64,000 bases of DNA from an uncultured bacterium (lineage in GTDB: Bacteria > Patescibacteriota > Minisyncoccia > UBA6257 > GWB1-50-10), in the NCBI GenBank assembly GCA_963722655.1, contig CAVRNT010000002.1, positions 71,461-135,460 on the forward strand, read 5' to 3'. Under the pieces are notes generated by a model. The model was given only the letters and a program-made list of their open reading frames with translations, was not told the origin of the DNA and did not search any database. Positions 2,763 through 17,075 of the stretch are shown piece by piece; the first letter of the stretch is position 1; each line of letters begins with the position of its first letter. A program made the position numbers and the translations under genes.

Positions 2763-4594
2763 TTAGCTTGAATTGTTCTGGCATTTTTGCCGTTTCATCA
2801 AGTTGCCATCGACAAATTCGACGACCTTCTTCATTACTGAGTGAAATGACCTGGCGCCACCGCGTTCCAGTCTGCTTAGGGTTGCCGGATCGATTCCGAT
2901 CAACCGGGCAAGCCCTTTTTGACTGAGACCAATGGACAGGCGATAGCGGAGGAGTTTGCCCGCTAAATCATGGTCTTCCGACGCGAAGGGATCGTATCCC
3001 AGAAATGATATGACCGCTGGGATTTCCCTTGGCAGGGGTTTTGTCCTGTTCTTTTCCCAGTTCCAGATCGTCGCTTCATCGACTTTGATGGTGTGTGCGA
3101 CCTGTTTCTGCGTCATCTTCAGGTCCAGCCGCCGTCTCCTGATGTGGTCGCCGACTGTCGCGACTTGCCGGGGGTACGCCTTGGAAACGGGCTTTTTAGC
3201 GATTAATTGGACATCAAGAATGGCAACGCAGGGATGAGGATGCGTTGCCATTGAGGGGGAATTCAAGGAGTGGGGGACGTAGGACAGGTTTATTTGGATT
3301 TCATCGCCGGACACGATGATCTTCTCCGTTATGGTTTCGACGATCCTGCGTTTCTCGCTGGGTTCCAGGCTGGACCATCGCGAGTACAGGTCTTGAGCCT
3401 CGTTAACGACCTCGTCGCTCGATAGGTACTGTATCTTGAGGAAATCGATCTCTCCCTGCAATTCGGGCAGTTGTCTCTCGATTTGCTTGAAACGCTCGTC
3501 CAGCGGCTTGTAATGCCTCCCAACGGCCTCCTGGGGCACCGTCTTGTCCAAGTAGAGTTTCATGATCCGGTCCATCTCCTCCCGGATGGTCTTGGATTCG
3601 GCATCGATGGTTTCGAGGAGGCGCTCCTTTTCCCGGATGGTCTCATCCGCATGGCTCAGGTATTTCGCGATTTCTTCTGGGGAGAAGAAGAAAGCCTTGA
3701 GCTGCTCCTGGAAAACAGACTCAAGGTCGGCGGTGGCGATCTTGTTATGGCACTTGCGGCAGTAGTAGTTGGCGGATTTCGAGGGGACCGGCATCCCCGT
3801 GCCGCACGCGGAACAGTAAACGAGGCCGGAGAAAAGGTGAAGCGACTTCCTGGCGGGGGGTCTCCTTTGGGCGTGTTGTTCCTCAAGCATCTGGTTGCAA
3901 TGGTCCCACGTCTCCTCGGAGACAATCGGCTCGATTTCGGATAGCACCCATTCGTCTTCCGGTTTCAGAATCCACTTCTTTCCCTCACCAAGGGACTTCG
4001 TGTAATTGGCTCGTCTCAAACCCTTGGCACTCGGATCGCGGAGAAGCCGGTCAACCGTCGTGTCGCTGAACTTGGAACCGTTCCTTGTCCTGTGACCCCG
4101 CTCGTTGAGCATCCGTGCCACTGTCTTCTTGCGGCGGTGTTCGAGGAAAAGATCGTACATGAGCCTCCTGACGGGAGCCTCCTTCGGCTCGGGGACCAGT
4201 TTTCTGTCCAGCCAACGGTAGCCGAACGGCGCCGCTCCGCAGCGGTTTCCCAGCTTCGCCGTATCGGGACGGAGGCGGCGACCTGTCGGCTATCTCCTCG
4301 CGTTCACTGGGCCATGGCGGCGATCATGGTGTAAAAGAGACGGCCTGACGAACTCGAAAATGTCGGATCAATTCCTGGAGCGAAACGAGGTCGGCGTATA
4401 TTGCCGGAATATCTCGGCGAACTCCAAGAGTTCGCGGGTATTCGGCGAGCCGTGCAGCTTGGAGAATATAAGTGCGGTTATCCGTCCGCACTTGATGTCG
4501 TCGAGCATGCGCTGTGTTTCTGGATAGCCCATGACGGTCTTTCCGCTCATCGCCTCAAGGTGGTAAATCTCTTTCACCTCCCAGCCTTCGACTC
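2763..4594 (-). pseudogene. large serine recombinase that is frameshifted and N-terminally truncated: resolvase domain fragments, recombinase domain, zinc ribbon and coiled-coil
   Basis: ORF 2763..4160 carries the recombinase domain and the zinc-beta-ribbon 'LVYCSACGTG...YYCRKCHNK'. ORF 4368..4577 is a resolvase-domain piece 'GWEVKEIYHLEAMSGKTVMGYPETQRMLDDIKCGRITALIFSKLHGSPNTRELLEF'. The next resolvase segment, 'GIDPTFSSSSGRLFYTMIAAMAQ', is in a different frame at 4320-4400, so there are at least two frameshifts. The catalytic-Ser N-terminus is lost into the homopolymer block at 4595. Confidence 0.8.
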
Positions 4595-9763
<5,169 letters not shown>

Positions 9764-9894
9764 AATTCCGGGTTATCCAGTACATAAGGAGTGTATTGTT
9801 GACGTGAGCGGCACGTTTACCATTCTTACGGACCGTTCCTCATCGCCTTACGATGAATCCAGAATCATTAAAAAAGAAAAAGGAGATGAGGATC

Positions 9895-10383
9895 ATGTCA
9901 TTCAACAAACATGAGAAGGTTGAAGTGGGATTCAACCAGGCGACGAGGCTCCGGCTCATCAAGACCGAACCCTTCATCGGCACCAACGATTACGGGAGGT
10001 ACTACCGCTATGACGTTCTCGACCTCGGCGACGACAAGGAGAAATCGTTCTTCGCCCCTGATTACCTCCATGAGGAGATGAAGGAGAAGGGGCTGGCCGC
10101 CGGGAAGGAATTCGCGGTGAAGAAGGTGCCCTTCAAGAATAACGGGAAACCTTCTTCGCGGATTGAGCTTTCCGTGAACGGCGCGGCTTCGCCACGAAGA
10201 GAAAACCATCAAGCATCGCCCAAGCTGAATTTCCGCGACATCATGCTGGAGTGCCTGAAGGACGCGGTCGAGATCGTGAATTCGGTGAAGGAGGTCCCGT
10301 TCCAGACGAATGATATCCGTTCCATCGCCGCGACGCTCTTCATCGCCAAGGTGAAGCAGTGGAATTACCGGGAAGGCGACTGA
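9895..10383 (+). CDS. hypothetical protein upstream of the SymE-like gene
   Basis: The ORF has an 'aaaaggag' SD 9 nt upstream of ATG 9895. Its stop overlaps the next start in a 'TGATCATG' junction. No recognisable domain. Confidence 0.5.
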   Translation: MSFNKHEKVEVGFNQATRLRLIKTEPFIGTNDYGRYYRYDVLDLGDDKEKSFFAPDYLHEEMKEKGLAAGKEFAVKKVPFKNNGKPSSRIELSVNGAASPRRENHQASPKLNFRDIMLECLKDAVEIVNSVKEVPFQTNDIRSIAATLFIAKVKQWNYREGD

Positions 10384-10385
10384 TC

Positions 10386-10679
10386 ATGGACAAGACGGAT
10401 AGCGCAGGGGCAGACACGGGTAAGCTGGCGGGTGACGGTGTGCGCAGACTCCGGAAAGTCCAGTATGCGTACTATGACCACGGCTCTGACGCGCCGCATC
10501 CAGTCATTCGGATAGCTGGGAAGTACCTTGAAAAATTCGGATTCAGAATCGGAGATACGATCGAGGTGGAGATCGGAAACGGTGAAATATCCATAAGCAA
10601 GCTGTCGGACTCCGTGGGGGATTACCTCAACGAAGCTGGTCCGGATTCCTCTGATGAATCCCAAAACAAAAGGGAGTAG
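10386..10679 (+). CDS. SymE-like (SymE_toxin / AbrB-fold) type I toxin family protein
   Basis: 'KVQYAYYDHGSDAPHPVIRIAGKYLEKFGFRIGDTIEVEIGNGEISIS' aligns with E. coli SymE '[48 protein letters not shown]'. Confidence 0.6.
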   Translation: MDKTDSAGADTGKLAGDGVRRLRKVQYAYYDHGSDAPHPVIRIAGKYLEKFGFRIGDTIEVEIGNGEISISKLSDSVGDYLNEAGPDSSDESQNKRE

Positions 10680-10697
10680 CTCAACTACTCCCTTTTT
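10668..10697 (+). terminator. rho-independent terminator after the SymE-like gene
   Basis: Perfect 12-bp stem aaaagggagtag / ctactccctttt with loop ctcaa, followed by a T-run. The stop codon lies inside the stem. Confidence 0.7.
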
Positions 10698-10722
10698 ACT
10701 TTACGAGAGAATCTAGTTCATC

Positions 10723-10752
10723 TTGACTCAGGCGAATATCCAAACATATACT
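10723..10752 (+). promoter_or_regulatory. sigma70-like promoter (TTGACT, 18 bp spacer, TATACT), probably giving a leaderless transcript for the 10760 gene
   Basis: Hexamers are seen in the sequence. The ATG at 10760 lies 7 nt downstream of the -10 and there is no SD. Confidence 0.45.
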
Positions 10753-10759
10753 TTTAATA

Positions 10760-11770
10760 ATGGATAAGGAAACTCAACTGAAATTCAGAATATCAAAGAT
10801 CGCCAATCAATTTTTCTTCATTACCAATTTGGCTGAATGGGATTTCAGTTGTAGGACGGAATATAGTGCCTTGTGGATTGAACACACTGGCCCTCTTAAT
10901 GCGGAGGAAAAAGAAACGCTCCTAGCGGTGAAGAAGATCATACAGGCACACAGTCCCTATCATTATGAGGATGGGCGATCAAATTCACTTTGGAATTGTT
11001 TCTACACGCTTTCAAGCAGTTCTGCTTGGAAACGTGCGAGACTCGCCCTCACCGATTCGGATTACAACCAATTGAAGCGGGCTTTCAATCTGTTCGATTG
11101 GCGCTTCAAGAGAATTTGGCGGCGTTCAAATCTGCAAAAGGACGTTTCGAGACTGAAGCAGCTATCTCAGGCAAGGAGTTGCCGTGTTGCCATTCGAGAA
11201 ATGTTCCACTTCTTGGGGCTGACGGACATTCCATCGCAGCTGGAGGTTGTCGCATTGATGTCCCCGCTTAGTGGCGATTCGGTGACTGCTGCGGGTGGTG
11301 CAAACGTGGATGATCGACATATTACTCTCGAAATCCCATCACTGAGGCCCAATACATGGGAATTGGAACACTCTCTAGGGGTTCTAATCCACGAGGTAGG
11401 CCATATCGCGATGAGAATAGGTGCGAAAGCGGGATCTCTTGTCAAGAATATGAGCGGGAACATTAGGTTCGGCCAGAATCAAAGGCCCTTTCGCGAAATT
11501 TTGGAGGAGACGATCATAGATTGCCTTGCCCCTTCTGGCTTTCTCGCTCAACATTACTTTCGGTTCAAGCCAACAACATTGTTCACAGAAGACATGCCAC
11601 GCATCTTCGAACACTTTCTCAGGTTCAAAAGCGGCCGTCGATATTCGCCGTACAAAGTTGGCCAATATTTTGTCTGGCAACTCTATCCAATCACCGCATC
11701 ATACATGGGGAACAAAAAGACCATCGACAAAGCCTTTGTCGAATGCGTTGTCAATTTACTGAAGAGGTAA
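10760..11770 (+). CDS. hypothetical protein with an HExxH zinc-metallopeptidase-like motif
   Basis: 336 aa. 'VLIHEVGHIAM' is followed ~30 aa later by 'EILEE'. AT-rich. Its 3' end overlaps the convergent rSAM gene by 20 nt. Confidence 0.5.
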   Translation: MDKETQLKFRISKIANQFFFITNLAEWDFSCRTEYSALWIEHTGPLNAEEKETLLAVKKIIQAHSPYHYEDGRSNSLWNCFYTLSSSSAWKRARLALTDSDYNQLKRAFNLFDWRFKRIWRRSNLQKDVSRLKQLSQARSCRVAIREMFHFLGLTDIPSQLEVVALMSPLSGDSVTAAGGANVDDRHITLEIPSLRPNTWELEHSLGVLIHEVGHIAMRIGAKAGSLVKNMSGNIRFGQNQRPFREILEETIIDCLAPSGFLAQHYFRFKPTTLFTEDMPRIFEHFLRFKSGRRYSPYKVGQYFVWQLYPITASYMGNKKTIDKAFVECVVNLLKR

Positions 11771-12881
11771 CATCAAGGGGCGTGGACTTTAGCTTACCGC
11801 TTGAGATAATATCTCTGATTCTCGTCTGGATATAACGGAAGGTTTCCTGCCGAGCCTCGCAATATGGATAGTCGCCGTCATATCTTCCGGAATGCCAATA
11901 CGACGCCTCTCGGCAGCCGCCACGGCAGAGGGATAGGTACGCGCACTTGAGACATTTTGCGTTTACGTGCACTGAACGCATCTTCCTTAGTTTATGTGTT
12001 TTCTTTGACGATAGGATTTTGATAAGCGGTTCGGAGAAAACATTTCCTAGGACAAATTCTTCGGATGAAAATGAACCGCATGGCATGACTGTCCCGTCTG
12101 GTGCCACCGTAACCATTCTCTTAAGACAAGATGAGCTGAAAGAACACAGCTGTGGCGGAATGCCGAGTAATGATTGCACCATACTGTATATCGGGTCCAG
12201 TGTCAGCATGGTCTCGTTGCTTGGGTCAACCCACAATTCGAAGGTAGTCCGATAAAGTTCGAAGAGTTCCTCATTGGTGGGGGCTTCCACTCGTCTGCCA
12301 TTTGGGGTGCTCATCAATGGTAGTAACGAGTAAGAGGTTGCTCCCGATGAAGAGAAGAAACGATATATCTCGGAACCCCGCAGAACATTTCTTTTGGTTA
12401 CAACGCATAGGAAGCTGAGGGGGAACTTCTTCTCCCGCATGAGTGTGATGGTATGAGAAATCTCCGCTTCAATACCTGGATCTCCCATTGTTCTTTGGAA
12501 CCTTTGCACATCAGGTGGGGCGTCATAGCTGACACCTACGGAAAACTTATTCTTGTTAAAGAATTCTAGCCATTCACCATTGATCAGCGTTCCATTGGTC
12601 TGCAAAGTGTTCTTGAAGACTGTTGCGTTTTTCCTGGTGATCTCAGTTTCGGTTTCAACGGCTGTCTCATAGAATTCTAACCCTGCCAACATTGGTTCGC
12701 CGCCATGCCAGGTGAATTTGACTGAGTCAAAGCCTCGCGACGCATTTCGGACCACATTCTGCATTTCAGCGACGGACATTTTGCACACGCCCTTCCTTGA
12801 AGCCATGACATAACAATCATAGCCACAATGCATATTGCATTCGGAACTGGTCTGAACGATGACACTAATTGTGTTGCCCAA
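11751..12881 (-). CDS. radical SAM enzyme with a C-terminal SPASM domain (peptide/protein-modifying maturase family)
   Basis: The N-terminal Cys cluster is 'CNMHCGYDC' (CX3CX3C spacing as translated) and a 'WHGGEPMLAG' SAM-binding motif follows. The C-terminal SPASM motifs are 'C-x10-G' and 'CLKCAYLSLCRGGC' (CX2CX5CX3C), plus a final 'YPYC'. The start is a TTG. Confidence 0.8.
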   Translation of the reverse strand: MGNTISVIVQTSSECNMHCGYDCYVMASRKGVCKMSVAEMQNVVRNASRGFDSVKFTWHGGEPMLAGLEFYETAVETETEITRKNATVFKNTLQTNGTLINGEWLEFFNKNKFSVGVSYDAPPDVQRFQRTMGDPGIEAEISHTITLMREKKFPLSFLCVVTKRNVLRGSEIYRFFSSSGATSYSLLPLMSTPNGRRVEAPTNEELFELYRTTFELWVDPSNETMLTLDPIYSMVQSLLGIPPQLCSFSSSCLKRMVTVAPDGTVMPCGSFSSEEFVLGNVFSEPLIKILSSKKTHKLRKMRSVHVNAKCLKCAYLSLCRGGCREASYWHSGRYDGDYPYCEARQETFRYIQTRIRDIISSGKLKSTPLDVTSSVN

Positions 12882-13057
12882 AAGAATTAGTCGCCCCCCA
12901 TACTAACGCGCGGTGCTCTCAATGGGTATGATCGTGCCGCGGCTCGTCAGAATGGTGCTCGTGCGTATCCGTGTATCTGTCGCAGTTCTTTGATTTGGAA
13001 GAGTCGTGACTCAGAAATTCCAACGCTTCTCTGACGACTCGGCCATGGAACTTTCAA

Positions 13058-15055
13058 ATGCTCTTTCACATACTAAAGCAAGTGAAATATGAACCTAGAG
13101 ATAGAGTCTATGTGGGGACTGATGACCCATCTGCTTACAAGTATTCAGTAGTAGATTCCCTTTCCATTTCAACAAAAGATGATGATTTTTTCTTTAAAGG
13201 AATTGGGAAGATTCTACTTAATCAGGGTCTAAATTGTGTGATTGGTCCACGAGGAGCGGGGAAATCCACAATGCTAGATGTCATTGCGTTGAGTTTGGGA
13301 AATTTAGATGTACTAAAAGAAAACAGAAATAACTACGTCGGGTATTTCTTCAAGACAGGTGACGCAGGTATCGTAAAGTCACTCGTAAGAAATTCCTCTA
13401 CCGGAGAAAATAAGGAGTTGTCGGCTGCAACGGCAAAGGCAAGTGGGTTCGTATTCGATTACTATCATCAGAAACAGATAGGTTACTTAGCCGATCCCAA
13501 TAACGAAGAAATTTTAAGTCGCTTTCTATTCGAGAAAATCTTCAAAGAAGGACGTGGGTTGGATTCAATATTCAGCGAGATGAATGAACAAAGAGATAAA
13601 TGTGTTTCGAGCCTTGCAATTAATAGAGAGAAAGTGGTCGCCTGTGAAAAGGAAATTGCCAAGGAAACAGATGTACGCGGGAAGATTGATGACAAAACCA
13701 ACAGAGCACAATTCCTTTCACAGGAGGAAATTAAACATCTATTAAATCAAAGGAATAAGGTAATTAAACTACGCGAACAAGTAAAAAGAATAAAAACGCG
13801 GGTCGATAGAATTGACGAAGAGCCACTTATTGCAGAAGGCGAATTGGTTGACTCTGCTTTTTTCTCAGACCTTAAGCTTAGTTCGGTTGACCCGGAAGGG
13901 ACACTAATCCCGGCCGAGTGGAAAAAATTAGAAAAAGATGCAAACGAGTTTGTGACATCCTTAGGCAAGACAAGGGTGAGCCTCGAATCAGAAGTTGTGG
14001 GTTTCACAAAGAAGGTTGTGGAGTTGGAACCGTTATTCAAGTTCGATCAGGAACTTGAGGGGATATGGAAACAAATCCAGGCAGAATCTAGCAAGAAGGG
14101 TGTCACTATAACAAAGATCGATCTGGAGCGGCTGGATGCGATTCAAAAGGAAGTTGCTTCATTAGAAAAACAGTTACAGACAATCGAGGCACACAAAAGA
14201 GAGAGAACGACCTTCCTTGAAGAACGAGGGAGGCTACTGAAGGAATACAACGATCACCTAGTCACGGTGAAGAGTAGTCTAGAAGGTAATTTTAGAGACC
14301 TACTGGATAAAGATGGCGCTATTCTTGAAAACACAATTAAATTGGAAGTGGAGATTAACCTATCCCTAGACTCTTATCTGTCGGTCATTGAGGAAAAAGC
14401 TCAGCACGAGGCCGGAAGTGATGTAGCAAGATTTCCTAATAGAAAGTCCCTCCTCGAGCTTTTTAAGAGTTTGACTGCAGAGAAAGTATTACGCGACTTA
14501 CGCAATAACTATTTTGAAGACTGGATTGGACCTGGCTTTGGCTCTGGTGGCTTGGACTATTTTAGGAAGATGTCGAATCGCGAGGAGGTCGCTATGTATA
14601 TTGAGGAGCAATTGCCAACCCTGACATCGCGATTGACCTGGAGGCCAGACCAATCAAAGGAATTTAAACCTCTGAGAAAATGCTCCATTGGTGAGAGAGG
14701 AACAGCGCTACTGAGCGTAATTTTGATCGCGGGCCGAGAACCACTTGTCATAGACCAACCCGAGGATGATCTCGACCATTTTTATTTATTTAAAACCCTC
14801 ACGCCAATAATCAAAGAAGTTAAGAAGAGAAGGCAATTATTATTTGCCACACACGACGCTAATATCGTTGTCAACGGTGATGCTGAGTTGATTCTGATTG
14901 TAGCCACGGATGATGGAAAATACGGTGATATTACTACCTCGTCGATAGAAGACTTGAGAAATAGGACGAGGATAATGGGCATATTGGAAGGTGGCGAGGA
15001 TGCTTTCACAAAAAGAGAGCAGAAGTACAATTTCCCTCGACAGAAATCATCTTAG
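13058..15055 (+). CDS. SMC/RecN/RecF-like ABC-type ATPase with a long coiled-coil insert (665 aa), possibly a conflict/defence-system ATPase
   Basis: Walker A 'GPRGAGKST' at aa ~65. A ~300 aa heptad-rich K/E/L region. Signature-like 'SIGERG', Walker B 'LVIDQPEDDLD' and H-loop 'FATHD' near the C-terminus. AT-rich island gene. Confidence 0.75.
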   Translation: MLFHILKQVKYEPRDRVYVGTDDPSAYKYSVVDSLSISTKDDDFFFKGIGKILLNQGLNCVIGPRGAGKSTMLDVIALSLGNLDVLKENRNNYVGYFFKTGDAGIVKSLVRNSSTGENKELSAATAKASGFVFDYYHQKQIGYLADPNNEEILSRFLFEKIFKEGRGLDSIFSEMNEQRDKCVSSLAINREKVVACEKEIAKETDVRGKIDDKTNRAQFLSQEEIKHLLNQRNKVIKLREQVKRIKTRVDRIDEEPLIAEGELVDSAFFSDLKLSSVDPEGTLIPAEWKKLEKDANEFVTSLGKTRVSLESEVVGFTKKVVELEPLFKFDQELEGIWKQIQAESSKKGVTITKIDLERLDAIQKEVASLEKQLQTIEAHKRERTTFLEERGRLLKEYNDHLVTVKSSLEGNFRDLLDKDGAILENTIKLEVEINLSLDSYLSVIEEKAQHEAGSDVARFPNRKSLLELFKSLTAEKVLRDLRNNYFEDWIGPGFGSGGLDYFRKMSNREEVAMYIEEQLPTLTSRLTWRPDQSKEFKPLRKCSIGERGTALLSVILIAGREPLVIDQPEDDLDHFYLFKTLTPIIKEVKKRRQLLFATHDANIVVNGDAELILIVATDDGKYGDITTSSIEDLRNRTRIMGILEGGEDAFTKREQKYNFPRQKSS

Positions 15056-15107
15056 TAGGACACTTGCGAATTTGATTTAAGCAGGCGAAAATTATTAAGG
15101 TGATACT

Positions 15108-15623
15108 ATGAATTTCTCTCTTAAACCGAATCCCCTAATAGCCCTTTGGGTGCCGGGCTTTCTGACGGTCACGGTGATTCTTCTCAGTGCCTATGTAGGC
15201 GGATCGCTAAGTGTGTTGAACTCAATCACGACGCTTCCATTTTACGCCATTGGCTTCATGGTGATTGTTGCCGGGTTTGCGGTGGGAGAATTTTTAGATA
15301 CGATTAGAGATGTCCTATGGGAGAGCTTTTTGGATCATCTCTGCAAAGGGAAGTTCAAGATTCAATGGGAATTCTTTTTCAACGGAGAAGAAAGACATAT
15401 AAAAAATCTTGAGGAATGGTATTACACGTACTACGAGTTAGATTTCAATTTGTTTGCGGGAGAGGTGATAGTCTACCTACTGTCTTGGTTCCCAGTAATC
15501 CACATAAGCCTCGGAGTTCAGCTTATAATGGCCTTCCCCGCAGCACTCTTTCTCATAAGTGCTCTTCTTGTAAGAGGAGAAATTAAAAAATTAATTGATG
15601 AACATTATGCCCAACAAAAGTAA
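15108..15623 (+). CDS. small polytopic membrane protein (hypothetical)
   Basis: 171 aa with 3-4 hydrophobic segments. It sits between the ATPase and the SET gene with small overlaps, an operon-like arrangement. Confidence 0.5.
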   Translation: MNFSLKPNPLIALWVPGFLTVTVILLSAYVGGSLSVLNSITTLPFYAIGFMVIVAGFAVGEFLDTIRDVLWESFLDHLCKGKFKIQWEFFFNGEERHIKNLEEWYYTYYELDFNLFAGEVIVYLLSWFPVIHISLGVQLIMAFPAALFLISALLVRGEIKKLIDEHYAQQK

Positions 15624-16017
15624 TCTTCCCCATATTGGCGTTTACACCAGAATCAAGCGTTCTGAGGTAGACGAGAACGGTGTTGGGGTATTTGCCATAC
15701 AATCAATTAAGAAAGGAACCAATATCTTCCCCGGCGACATCGCCAGGATGGTTCCTGTAGACGGCAAGCAGATTAGGAAATTACCGAAGGCAATAAAGAA
15801 ACTCTATGAGGAGTTTTGTGTCATCAAGAAAAGGAAAAACGGGAAAATATACCTATGTCCCAAAAGCTTCAATCTTCTAACGGTTGCATGGTACATAAAC
15901 GACTCTGATACACCCAATGTCCGGTGTGACAAAAACTATGACTTCTTCGCACTCAGAAATATCAGGGCCGGGGAAGAATTAACAGCAGATTATTCGACTT
16001 ACAGCGACGAGGATTAG
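15607..16017 (+). CDS. SET-domain protein (putative protein lysine methyltransferase)
   Basis: 'GVGVFAIQSIKKGTNIF' matches the SET-N GxG motif. 'WYINDSDTPNVRC' matches the NHSCxPN motif. 'ALRNIRAGEELTADYS' matches ELxxDY. Confidence 0.75.
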   Translation: MPNKSNLPHIGVYTRIKRSEVDENGVGVFAIQSIKKGTNIFPGDIARMVPVDGKQIRKLPKAIKKLYEEFCVIKKRKNGKIYLCPKSFNLLTVAWYINDSDTPNVRCDKNYDFFALRNIRAGEELTADYSTYSDED

Positions 16018-16278
16018 GCTCCAAATTCACTCGCCAAATCGGTAGTCTTTTCAAATGAGTTTGTCTTTGTCTCTTCCGTCAATTTCTCCCACCTTATTCT
16101 GTGCATTCCTTTCCATTAGGATAATCAGGTGGTGACAAAGCATCCGACGGTGGACCTATGCACGCCGAAACTTCTTGTGCTTTTAGATCTAGTCCAAACC
16201 GTTGCCATGCCTGCAGCTCTTTGATTATCTGATTCCAATCCTCACGTATTAGGGCTACTAAAGCTGAGTACATACACA

Positions 16279-16305
16279 ACCTACCAAAAGCCCTCATACA
16301 ATGAG
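16279..16305. terminator. bidirectional hairpin terminator between the SET gene and the PAP2-like gene
   Basis: aaaagccctcat-acaa-tgagggctttt, a perfect inverted repeat flanked by A/T runs. Confidence 0.5.
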
Positions 16306-16451
16306 GGCTTTTGGTTTATCTAAAGCTAAGAAAGGTTCTAGCTTGGGTGGTGCAAGGGGAAGGATCTAACCTCCGAATAGATTATACTTTCCCGTTGAGG
16401 AGAATCGTCCACTGAATTGCGCTTGAGCACTTTCCCAACAATAAGAAAATG

Positions 16452-17075
16452 CTAATGACACAACAACCGATCTTTCATTCTACCCCAATACCCTATGGAG
16501 ACAGTATATATGAAGAAAACTATGAAGAAGCTGGCAACAACGTCGATTGTATAGTGCCCCCTGCCCGCTATTATGAAGAACGACTCCAGTATCGCCAGCG
16601 CGAGCATCGCATATTTACTCTTCTTGTCCCGCCACGACATAAGGAAAAACAACATGAATACCTGACCGACATGCCCGCTGGGGAAAGTTCCTCCCGTAAC
16701 AAGGACCTTCCCCAAGAGATCGAACGTGCCGGGCTCCATTGGTGTGGGGAGAGGCGTCAACGGAAGTATCGCCGCCCGGAATAGCTGGAAAAGCGCTATG
16801 CACGCGAGGTATAAGGGTAAGTCCTCGTATGATTTCTTGCGAATCACATAGGCTACAAAGCCGATGTCCGCGACCAGAAGGATTATGTCGGCGATATTGG
16901 AGTAGGCAGGATTGAATCCAAACAGCCGAAAGCCGAGATCGTTAAGAACGGGTCTGCTGCTTGCCACGCTGGAATAATGCGTCGAGACCGCATCCAGATA
17001 GCATCCTACGACCAGTAAGACCGCCGACAACACGAGTGCGGCCCAATACTTTTTATTGTATTTACATTTATGCAC
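16452..17075 (-). CDS. PAP2_C / sphingomyelin-synthase-like membrane phosphotransferase family protein
   Basis: Polytopic membrane protein with 'GGTFPSGHVG' (SGH motif) and 'GRGHYTIDVVASFF' (HYTxDV motif). Paralog of 53161..53829. Confidence 0.65.
   Translation of the reverse strand: MHKCKYNKKYWAALVLSAVLLVVGCYLDAVSTHYSSVASSRPVLNDLGFRLFGFNPAYSNIADIILLVADIGFVAYVIRKKSYEDLPLYLACIALFQLFRAAILPLTPLPTPMEPGTFDLLGKVLVTGGTFPSGHVGQVFMLFFLMSWRDKKSKYAMLALAILESFFIIAGRGHYTIDVVASFFIVFFIYTVSIGYWGRMKDRLLCH

Follow-up and report, generated by a model that had tools for sequence, protein, structure and literature searches.

The question raised by this locus is whether an unusual cysteine spacing in a radical S-adenosylmethionine (SAM) enzyme marks a new kind of iron-sulphur cluster site or damage to an ordinary one. 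The stretch of DNA analysed, hereafter the window, comprises 64,000 nucleotides of contig CAVRNT010000002.1 from an uncultured bacterium of the Patescibacteriota. It contains a radical-SAM/SPASM gene whose SAM-cluster loop reads CX3CX3C in place of the canonical CX3CX2C, and a preliminary description of the window had treated this spacing as a trait of the enzyme type. Comparison with related loci indicates that it is most likely a recent lesion and not a new kind of cluster. The gene probably belongs to a cassette for a ribosomally synthesised and post-translationally modified peptide (RiPP) of an undescribed family, carried on an integrated conjugative element and impaired or dead in the window genome.

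The radical-SAM/SPASM gene, a homologue of peptide maturases, occupies 11751..12881 on the minus strand and encodes 376 aa from a TTG start, with matches in Pfam and NCBIfam. It converges, with a 20-bp overlap, on a plus-strand gene at 10760..11770 for a 336-aa HExxH protein, a putative zinc peptidase of the gluzincin type that is also the candidate for leader removal. Both open reading frames (ORFs), the second with its HEVGH motif, were found as the preliminary description had given them. Re-translation of the minus strand also reproduced the reported CNMHCGYDC (TGC AAT ATG CAT TGT GGC TAT GAT TGT). Read directly from the DNA, the loop at 12813..12839 (minus strand) is thus C15-N-M-H-C19-G-Y-D-C23, i.e. 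CX3CX3C, with an extra GAT codon at 12816-12818.

The canonical motif has the form C-x3-C-x-aromatic-C. All 20 clade homologues that retain the N-terminus fit it, reading C-N-[LFI]-x-C-x-[YS]-C (alignment A1), and the window copy does not; a one-column gap is opened in every other sequence opposite its Asp22. The GAT codon is therefore a one-codon insertion unique to the window sequence, and it parts the conserved aromatic residue from the third cysteine of the SAM-cluster loop. With 20/20 homologues canonical, the family keeps the normal spacing and the window copy alone deviates, so that the extra residue is private and not a trait of the enzyme type. The TTG at 12881 aligns with Met1 of the homologues. 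Public gene calls differ in the region 12804-12881 and start the window enzyme at Met26 (P0001, 351 aa) or Met17 (P0288, 360 aa); they thereby drop all or part of the cluster motif, and both the motif and its defect are hidden in the public proteins. A literature search found no description of a CX3CX3C radical-SAM motif, its two text matches being a probable slip or typing error concerning NifB and an unrelated pattern of peptide cysteines. Among recorded variants, HmdB (CX5CX2C) and QueE (CX14CX2C) change the first spacer only, while ThiC (CX2CX4C) and PhnJ (CX2CX21CX5C) carry non-canonical motifs near the C terminus (PMC4389238).

A sequencing or assembly error, with CX3CX2C as the true sequence, had been named as a possible way out, and a gross assembly artefact with error-dense flanks does lie about 4 kb away in the window record. 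Such an error is nevertheless very improbable. The Logan assembly of run ERR10755942 (locus L001) has identical DNA across the whole N-terminal region of the radical-SAM gene, GAT included, and 8591-16181 of the window is 99.8% identical to it, all 13 differences falling at 9024-9274 and none in the cassette. Moreover, an in-frame insertion of three nucleotides in a non-repetitive context, where there is no homopolymer, is untypical of errors. The ENA assembly ERZ25039512 encodes the same proteins as the window cassette.

A second lesion is found directly upstream of the enzyme, where the related loci (numbered with the prefix L) carry a small ORF immediately before the clade radical-SAM gene. 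It encodes 63 aa in L090/L170, 65 aa in L010/L172, 74 aa in L002, 66 aa in L004, 72 aa in L091, 66 aa in L008, 68 aa in L012, 55 aa in L173 and 63 aa in L175. A profile search added precursors P0285 and P0286 and returned 8 such proteins from the whole database; no NCBIfam model matches these peptides. As in RiPP systems generally, intact precursors (11 in all) stand beside clade radical-SAM genes, here in Patescibacteria, Saccharibacteria, Bacteroidota and unbinned contigs. Their leader is of the helix type L/V-x-x-I/V-I/V, and their C-terminal core is rich in His, Tyr and Trp with the pattern H-x-[YH]-[YW]-x-[DE]-x-P-[RS]-x-[DE]-[HYK].

A profile built from these 11 intact relatives, with the window excluded, was run against the window in all six frames (1957 segments, each from stop to stop) and gave a single significant match, 12922-13053 on the minus strand, directly upstream of the radical-SAM gene (E = 4.9e-6, the next best being E = 1.1). 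Taken from its start codon, a TTG, the ORF runs over 12919-13023 on the minus strand, comprises 34 codons and encodes MEFLSHDSSKSKNCDRYTDTHEHHSDEPRHDHTH, with the core HEHHSDEPRHDH. The 176-bp intergenic region, in which the preliminary description had found no precursor ORF, thus carries the conserved core of the family. The closest relative of this peptide is P0287 at L175, with the core RHEHYSDEPRHDHTY.

The gene in the window is truncated at its 5' end. The profile match is limited to core positions 37-59, and the leader positions are matched in no frame. Upstream of the TTG and in the same frame, however, the segment RVVREAL resembles the leader helix RVICEAL of the precursor at L175 (shuffle p ~0.04), and the TTG itself falls inside this helix remnant. 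Five codons beyond RVVREAL an in-frame TGA is met at 13054-13056, about 2 bases from the ATG of a divergent ATPase gene at 13058. Given the unmatched leader and the in-frame TGA, the first 25-30 codons of the precursor, including its Met, are missing. A frameshift, with the leader placed in an overlapping 40-codon ORF at 12947-13069 on the minus strand, was also considered and was rejected as the leader profile matches none of the three frames. Truncation is preferred because the helix remnant shares the frame of the core upstream of the TTG. The core that is left differs from those of the relatives as well, for it has His where 11/11 of them have Tyr or Trp (HEHH against H-x-x-[Y/W]).

The surroundings of the enzyme are conserved. 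An HExxH family member adjoins a radical-SAM gene in 12/12 distinct loci examined. In nine of these the radical-SAM gene is of the clade (the window, L004, L008, L012, L090/L170, L092, L093, L173 and L175); in three it is a different one (L009, and also L007 and L174, where the small ORFs are rich in Cys). The commonest layout is that of the window, a precursor of 55-74 aa followed by the radical-SAM gene and a convergent gene for an HExxH protein of ~340 aa. An ABC exporter stands beside the trio in L170, an M16-like peptidase is added in L008, and L175 and L009 each have a second MA-type peptidase. The clade cassettes of L002 and L172 adjoin coupling-protein genes, and other copies sit among housekeeping genes of metagenome-assembled genomes (MAGs) of Patescibacteria or Saccharibacteria. 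The HExxH protein is thus a genuine conserved partner, as had been suspected. At L175 (399-1472), which comes from the same study as L003, the clade radical-SAM gene has an in-frame TAG at codon 159 (AGC TAG TGG), a second apparently decayed copy; decay therefore does occur.

In the three loci with a different radical-SAM gene the HExxH partner persists. The small ORFs upstream of the unrelated enzyme in L007 (2114-2275) and L174 (2569-2739) are rich in Cys, Asp and Gly (…MCPCDDCDPCDYEAR and …CECGDSDGCDGDCGGDCNDVTCPSGGG, respectively). As HExxH members stand beside unrelated radical-SAM enzymes with Cys-rich ORFs, the HExxH family may serve several RiPP classes.

The same comparison bears on the substrate. 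The preliminary description had suggested that a neighbouring protein, namely the HExxH, SET-domain or ATPase product, might be modified. The genes are physically close and some radical-SAM/SPASM enzymes, such as the anaerobic sulfatase-maturating enzyme (anSME) and QhpD, do act on proteins. However, the related loci keep the trio of precursor, radical-SAM and HExxH genes, the small precursor ORF being conserved, while the SET-domain and ATPase genes are missing from every one of them. The invariant metallopeptidase-type site of the HExxH protein moreover fits an enzyme and not a substrate. Modification of a neighbouring protein is therefore regarded as highly unlikely. Being absent from all related loci, the SET-domain, membrane and ATPase genes are not part of the cassette.

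The enzyme itself was then placed among known families. It matches the Pfam Radical_SAM model PF04055 with 41.0 bits (cut-off 29.5), as expected of the superfamily, and two SPASM models, PF13186 with 41.2 bits (cut-off 21.5) and TIGR04085 with 60.8 bits (cut-off 27). The SAM-binding motif G60-G61-E62-P63 does not vary within the clade alignment. No element of the SPASM signature is missing, as had been described (C252-x10-G263-x4-C268, C310-x2-C313-x5-C319-x3-C323 and C341), though the auxiliary cysteines number eight and not the seven given before (C246, C252, C268, C310, C313, C319, C323 and C341). They lie at 11859..12146 on the minus strand, in columns invariant in the clade alignment, and make up the SPASM half's share of the 13 cysteines of the protein. 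All eight align with the eight auxiliary-cluster ligand cysteines of anSMEcpe (PDB 4K36, E = 1e-41), which would be enough for full ligation of two auxiliary [4Fe-4S] clusters.

A homologue search covering 5.8 billion proteins gave a sharply bounded clade of about 27 proteins (P0002-P0028; 43-52% identity, 325-421 bits). The next matches drop to 178 bits and ~30% identity, and are mostly annotated as anSME. The best NCBIfam model is anSME TIGR03942, with 218 bits against an equivalog cut-off of 349.45 that is not reached (E = 1.9e-64); two other anSME models fall further short (NF010321, 153.5 against 441; NF010308, 121 against 484). DynA NF041298 is second best, with 203 bits against 450. Further matches, all far below cut-off, were to maturases that form cyclophanes or ethers in peptides, namely AmcB, GrrM/OscB, DarW, DarE (101 against 650), YhhB, XyeB (54 against 450) and FxsB (66 against 370), those to the models of triceptide, or three-residue cyclophane, enzymes (XyeB, GrrM/OscB, YhhB, AmcB and FxsB) ranging over 54-124 bits against cut-offs of 310-445. 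The intact clade member P0017 gives the same picture. Since every score lies under its curated cut-off, the enzyme belongs to no curated family; judged by sequence comparison, it is one of a small distinct radical-SAM/SPASM clade whose nearest neighbours are anSME and DynA. PADLOC gave no sign of a known defence system, the radical-SAM protein giving only weak generic viperin matches confined to the radical-SAM core (E = 1e-10 to 1e-12) and the HExxH protein none.

The likeness to anSME has to be weighed, as a housekeeping anSME would convert Cys or Ser of a sulfatase encoded elsewhere to formylglycine and would need no peptide precursor. TIGR03942 is the best match among curated families and anSMEcpe the best among solved structures. 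The proteins agree in length and architecture, in having no N-terminal RiPP recognition element (RRE) domain, in the position of the SAM cluster at residues 15-23, and in a SPASM domain that provides eight Cys, the number needed to ligate two auxiliary clusters fully. Against this, 218 bits is far under 349 and DynA scores nearly as well, and identity falls from ~45% within the clade to ~30% for the annotated anSMEs. The gene partners of the clade are a conserved upstream peptide of 55-74 aa, which is not a sulfatase and has no C/S-x-P-x-R motif, and the HExxH protein. No sulfatase was found among the neighbouring genes scanned (9056-17075), and the gene lies on a mobile island; the window copy differs further from anSME in its CX3CX3C loop. 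Beyond the group to which it belongs, the cross-linking enzyme DarE likewise has its greatest similarity to anSME (PMC10288494), and for this reason anSME similarity is no evidence for sulfatase maturation. A role in sulfatase maturation thus has very little probability, and the earlier assignment to a peptide-maturase type, as opposed to a housekeeping enzyme, is upheld.

DynA, DarE and the triceptide enzymes (XyeB, GrrM/OscB, YhhB, AmcB and FxsB) offer a further analogy, each being an anSME-like radical-SAM/SPASM protein whose gene immediately follows that of a short precursor with many aromatic residues and His in its core. The positions of the cross-links in dynobactin were reportedly set out by Miller and colleagues in 2022. 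The H-S-Y of dynobactin and the aromatic-X-X of triceptides resemble the H-x-[Y/H] and the conserved [Y/W]-x-[D/E] of the clade precursors. The dynobactin core, WNSNVHSYRF, contains H-x-Y (PMC10125368), and this H-x-Y/H element is all that the clade cores have in common with the W-N-S-N-V-H-S-Y-R-F type. The full clade core, H-x-aromatic-aromatic-x-D/E-x-P-R/S-x-D/E-H, is not among the described motifs. The clade also differs from these systems in its taxa (MAGs of Patescibacteria, Saccharibacteria and Bacteroidota) and in scores that are all far below the cut-offs.

The pairing of the maturase with an HExxH protein has a precedent in FxsB and FxsC, where a radical-SAM/SPASM enzyme is paired with an HEXXH-motif protein (TIGR04267/TIGR04269, according to the NCBIfam/TIGRFAMs descriptions). 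Both pairs join a peptide-modifying radical-SAM/SPASM enzyme to an HExxH protein. They differ in that the window enzyme falls far short of the FxsB model, its HExxH protein has no NCBIfam match and its precursor is unrelated. The FxsC-type model TIGR04267 is not reached by the HExxH protein, and for its homologues P0125 and P0132 nothing above noise is obtained at E <= 1.

The HExxH protein has no match in Pfam, NCBIfam (E <= 0.01) or PADLOC. A word-indexed search returned 11 relatives, and a profile search of 1.84 billion cluster representatives 489 at E <= 1e-3, 146 of which are at E <= 1e-30; no relatives were found among the viral contigs searched. The putative metal site, H211-E212-V-G-H215 with E250 (11390..11509, plus strand), is conserved throughout the family: across 137 full-length diverse members, H211 and E212 are each kept in 136/137 and H215 and E250 in 137/137, and all four are invariant in alignment A5 as well. 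A Gly of the segment TAAGGAN, ~30 residues upstream of HExxH, is conserved, as is an N-terminal motif consisting of N16, F20, N23, W27, S30, R32 and W39.

The AlphaFold2 (AF2) model of the protein (pLDDT 86.9, pTM 0.87) has a helical N-terminal half, two long strands and the HExxH helix. Foldseek found no fold match in the PDB at E <= 0.001; the best was an M61 aminopeptidase (E 0.21, prob 0.63, TM 0.30), and other weak matches were likewise zinc peptidases (PPEP-1, aminopeptidase N and ADAM). Sub-threshold Pfam matches were to SprT-like, DUF2201_N and Reprolysin_5. With MA-clan gluzincins such as M61 and the M1 aminopeptidases the protein shares an HExxH helix after a beta-sheet and an invariant Glu 35 residues downstream; it differs from them in having no Pfam match, no fold match at the above threshold and a large N-terminal helical domain with its own invariant motif. 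Sequence and model together suggest that it is probably a gluzincin-type metallopeptidase site on a new scaffold, which may act as a leader peptidase.

A pathway can be proposed for the intact copies. The maturase would bind the precursor and cleave SAM at its CX3CX2C cluster, and the resulting 5'-deoxyadenosyl radical would abstract a hydrogen atom from a residue of the core. The electrons would be handled by the two auxiliary clusters, and side chains at the conserved His/aromatic motif might then be joined by at least one cross-link, either a cyclophane or a His-N/C linkage of the kinds made by DynA, DarE and the triceptide enzymes. The HExxH...E protein, as a zinc peptidase, would remove the leader, and in at least one locus the adjacent ABC transporter could export the product. 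In the window this sequence of events would be disturbed at three points. The private Asp codon turns CX3CX2C into CX3CX3C and separates the aromatic residue from the third Cys of the cluster loop; the start and most of the leader of the precursor have been lost where its gene meets that of the divergent TrlF-like ATPase; and the remaining core has His in place of the otherwise constant Tyr or Trp.

Several observations weigh against such a reading of the locus. The radical-SAM and HExxH ORFs are full-length, without frameshift or stop, and the former has only 3 conservative private changes at otherwise invariant columns, a number within the range of its homologues in a relaxed-selection count; the HExxH protein has 19 private substitutions, though in a small alignment of which it forms the outgroup. 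As these ORFs are otherwise intact, any inactivation must be recent and some residual function is possible. TTG is a valid initiation codon, and the 34-aa peptide, short though its leader is, may yet be accepted as a substrate. Cluster and SAM binding may also survive one extra residue in the second spacer, and the three assemblies with the GAT codon may stem from the same or related samples. The clade loci L002 and L172 have no HExxH gene nearby. The proposed chemistry is guessed from family resemblance and core composition, and the peptidase assignment draws on the motif and on weak matches (the Foldseek prob of 0.63 and the sub-threshold SprT-like and DUF2201 matches).

An alternative is that the CX3CX3C enzyme is functional, its loop tolerating the extra residue as a genuine non-canonical motif. 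It would then act on the 34-aa peptide with its short leader, or on a precursor from another place in the genome. The full-length ORF with its 3 conservative private substitutions, the retention of GGEP and the eight auxiliary Cys, an intact partner ORF with all its catalytic residues, and the fact that the three Cys still lie inside a 9-residue loop all favour this explanation. Yet the insertion is found in 1/21 sequences only and displaces the conserved aromatic residue before the third Cys. The quoted variants are of no help to it, as HmdB and QueE keep CX2C and the motifs of ThiC and PhnJ are non-canonical C-terminal ones (PMC4389238). The precursor is without most of its leader and without the invariant Tyr/Trp, and the six-frame profile search detected no second precursor in the 64-kb window. 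A functional enzyme is on balance unlikely, though better placed than any of the other alternatives. Given that the spacing arises from a private one-codon insertion in a cassette with a truncated substrate gene, CX3CX3C should not be reckoned among new cluster-binding motifs. The reading of the cassette as a damaged copy of a rare RiPP-type cassette is retained as the probable one.

The surroundings suggest how the cassette came to lie in this chromosome. GC content is 38-49% between 8 and 18 kb, as against 53-61% from 18 kb to 58 kb, and SecA, UvrA, UvrB and TypA are encoded further along the chromosome. The low-GC stretch holds genes for a type-IV coupling protein, a serine recombinase, a SymE-like toxin and a TrlF-like ATPase. 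With this combination of low GC and gene content the region looks like an integrated conjugative element, of which the cassette looks like cargo. The large serine recombinase (2763-4160, minus strand), with C-terminal helix-turn-helix domains, probably serves as the integrase of the cassette-bearing element; it has 654 aa in L001 and is shortened in the window by indels near the assembly artefact. A SymE-toxin-like ORF (10359-10679, plus strand; PF08845, 35 bits) stands immediately before the HExxH gene. It is preceded by a 176-aa ORF without a family match, the two having the appearance of a typical addiction module. A scan for promoters and terminators over 10400-13400 gave counts at chance level; a single promoter-like site was placed immediately before the HExxH gene, whereas the precursor and radical-SAM genes had none in front of them.

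On the other side of the cassette, the AAA ATPase of the TrlF-family/Ppl-like type (13058-15055, plus strand; 665 aa) begins 2 bp away from the stop codon by which the divergent precursor gene is cut short. It matches positions 259-944 of the TrlF model only and is without positions 1-258; its plasmid homologues are annotated as TrlF. A single deletion may have removed the 5' ends of both the precursor and the ATPase genes, natural short forms of TrlF being a further possibility. Downstream of the ATPase, 15108-16017 on the plus strand encodes a predicted membrane protein of 171 aa and an overlapping SET-domain protein of 140 aa (PF00856, E = 3e-11). This pair is co-linear in L001, is absent from all other cassette loci and may serve the element in defence or as a toxin module.

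The artefact mentioned above lies at 4600-8590, where ~4 kb of low-complexity sequence consists of short AT-only repeats followed by A x607 (4887-5493), T x3058 (5494-8551) and C x35 (8552-8586). At the corresponding place L001 (7589-12024) has 4.4 kb of normal coding DNA, with the end of the coupling-protein gene, a 190-aa ORF, an AP-endonuclease-2 gene, a 450-aa ORF and a DCD-domain gene. The flanks of the low-complexity block, at 9024-9274 and 4240-4586 of the window, are dense in mismatches and indels, and the block is almost certainly an assembly artefact of the window record. The type-IV coupling protein gene (TraD/VirD4-like; 8600-8809 and 9056-9763, minus strand) is split and frameshifted in the window and intact (444 aa) in L001 and L006, the breaks coinciding with the error-dense flank.

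Once the insertion is recognised as private, the non-canonical Cys spacing of the window enzyme is best set aside as a tempting but false lead. In its place three linked unannotated families are obtained: a precursor family of about a dozen members, an anSME/DynA-like radical-SAM/SPASM clade, and the HExxH...E family with several hundred clusters. The cassette family appears to be undescribed, yet it stands within the well-known field of radical-SAM-dependent RiPPs. The HExxH...E family offers a new marker gene to those who mine genomes for RiPPs, and a small set of intact cassettes (such as L170, L004, L008, L012 and L173) is available. Several of these belong to bacteria of the candidate phyla radiation, a group of which hardly any natural products are known. 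The window copy, damaged by nature, lends itself directly to testing how far the CX3CX2C loop tolerates an insertion. That its CX3CX3C loop still binds a working cluster is rather doubtful; if it does, this would be the first case of a lengthened second spacer in a radical-SAM enzyme of canonical fold. As for the intact relatives, it may be suggested, at somewhat less than even confidence, that they form a new RiPP class found mainly in MAGs of Patescibacteria, Saccharibacteria and Bacteroidota, with an undescribed cross-link in a core rich in His, Tyr, Trp and Asp that perhaps binds metal, and with the HExxH...E protein as a dedicated leader peptidase for several radical-SAM families.

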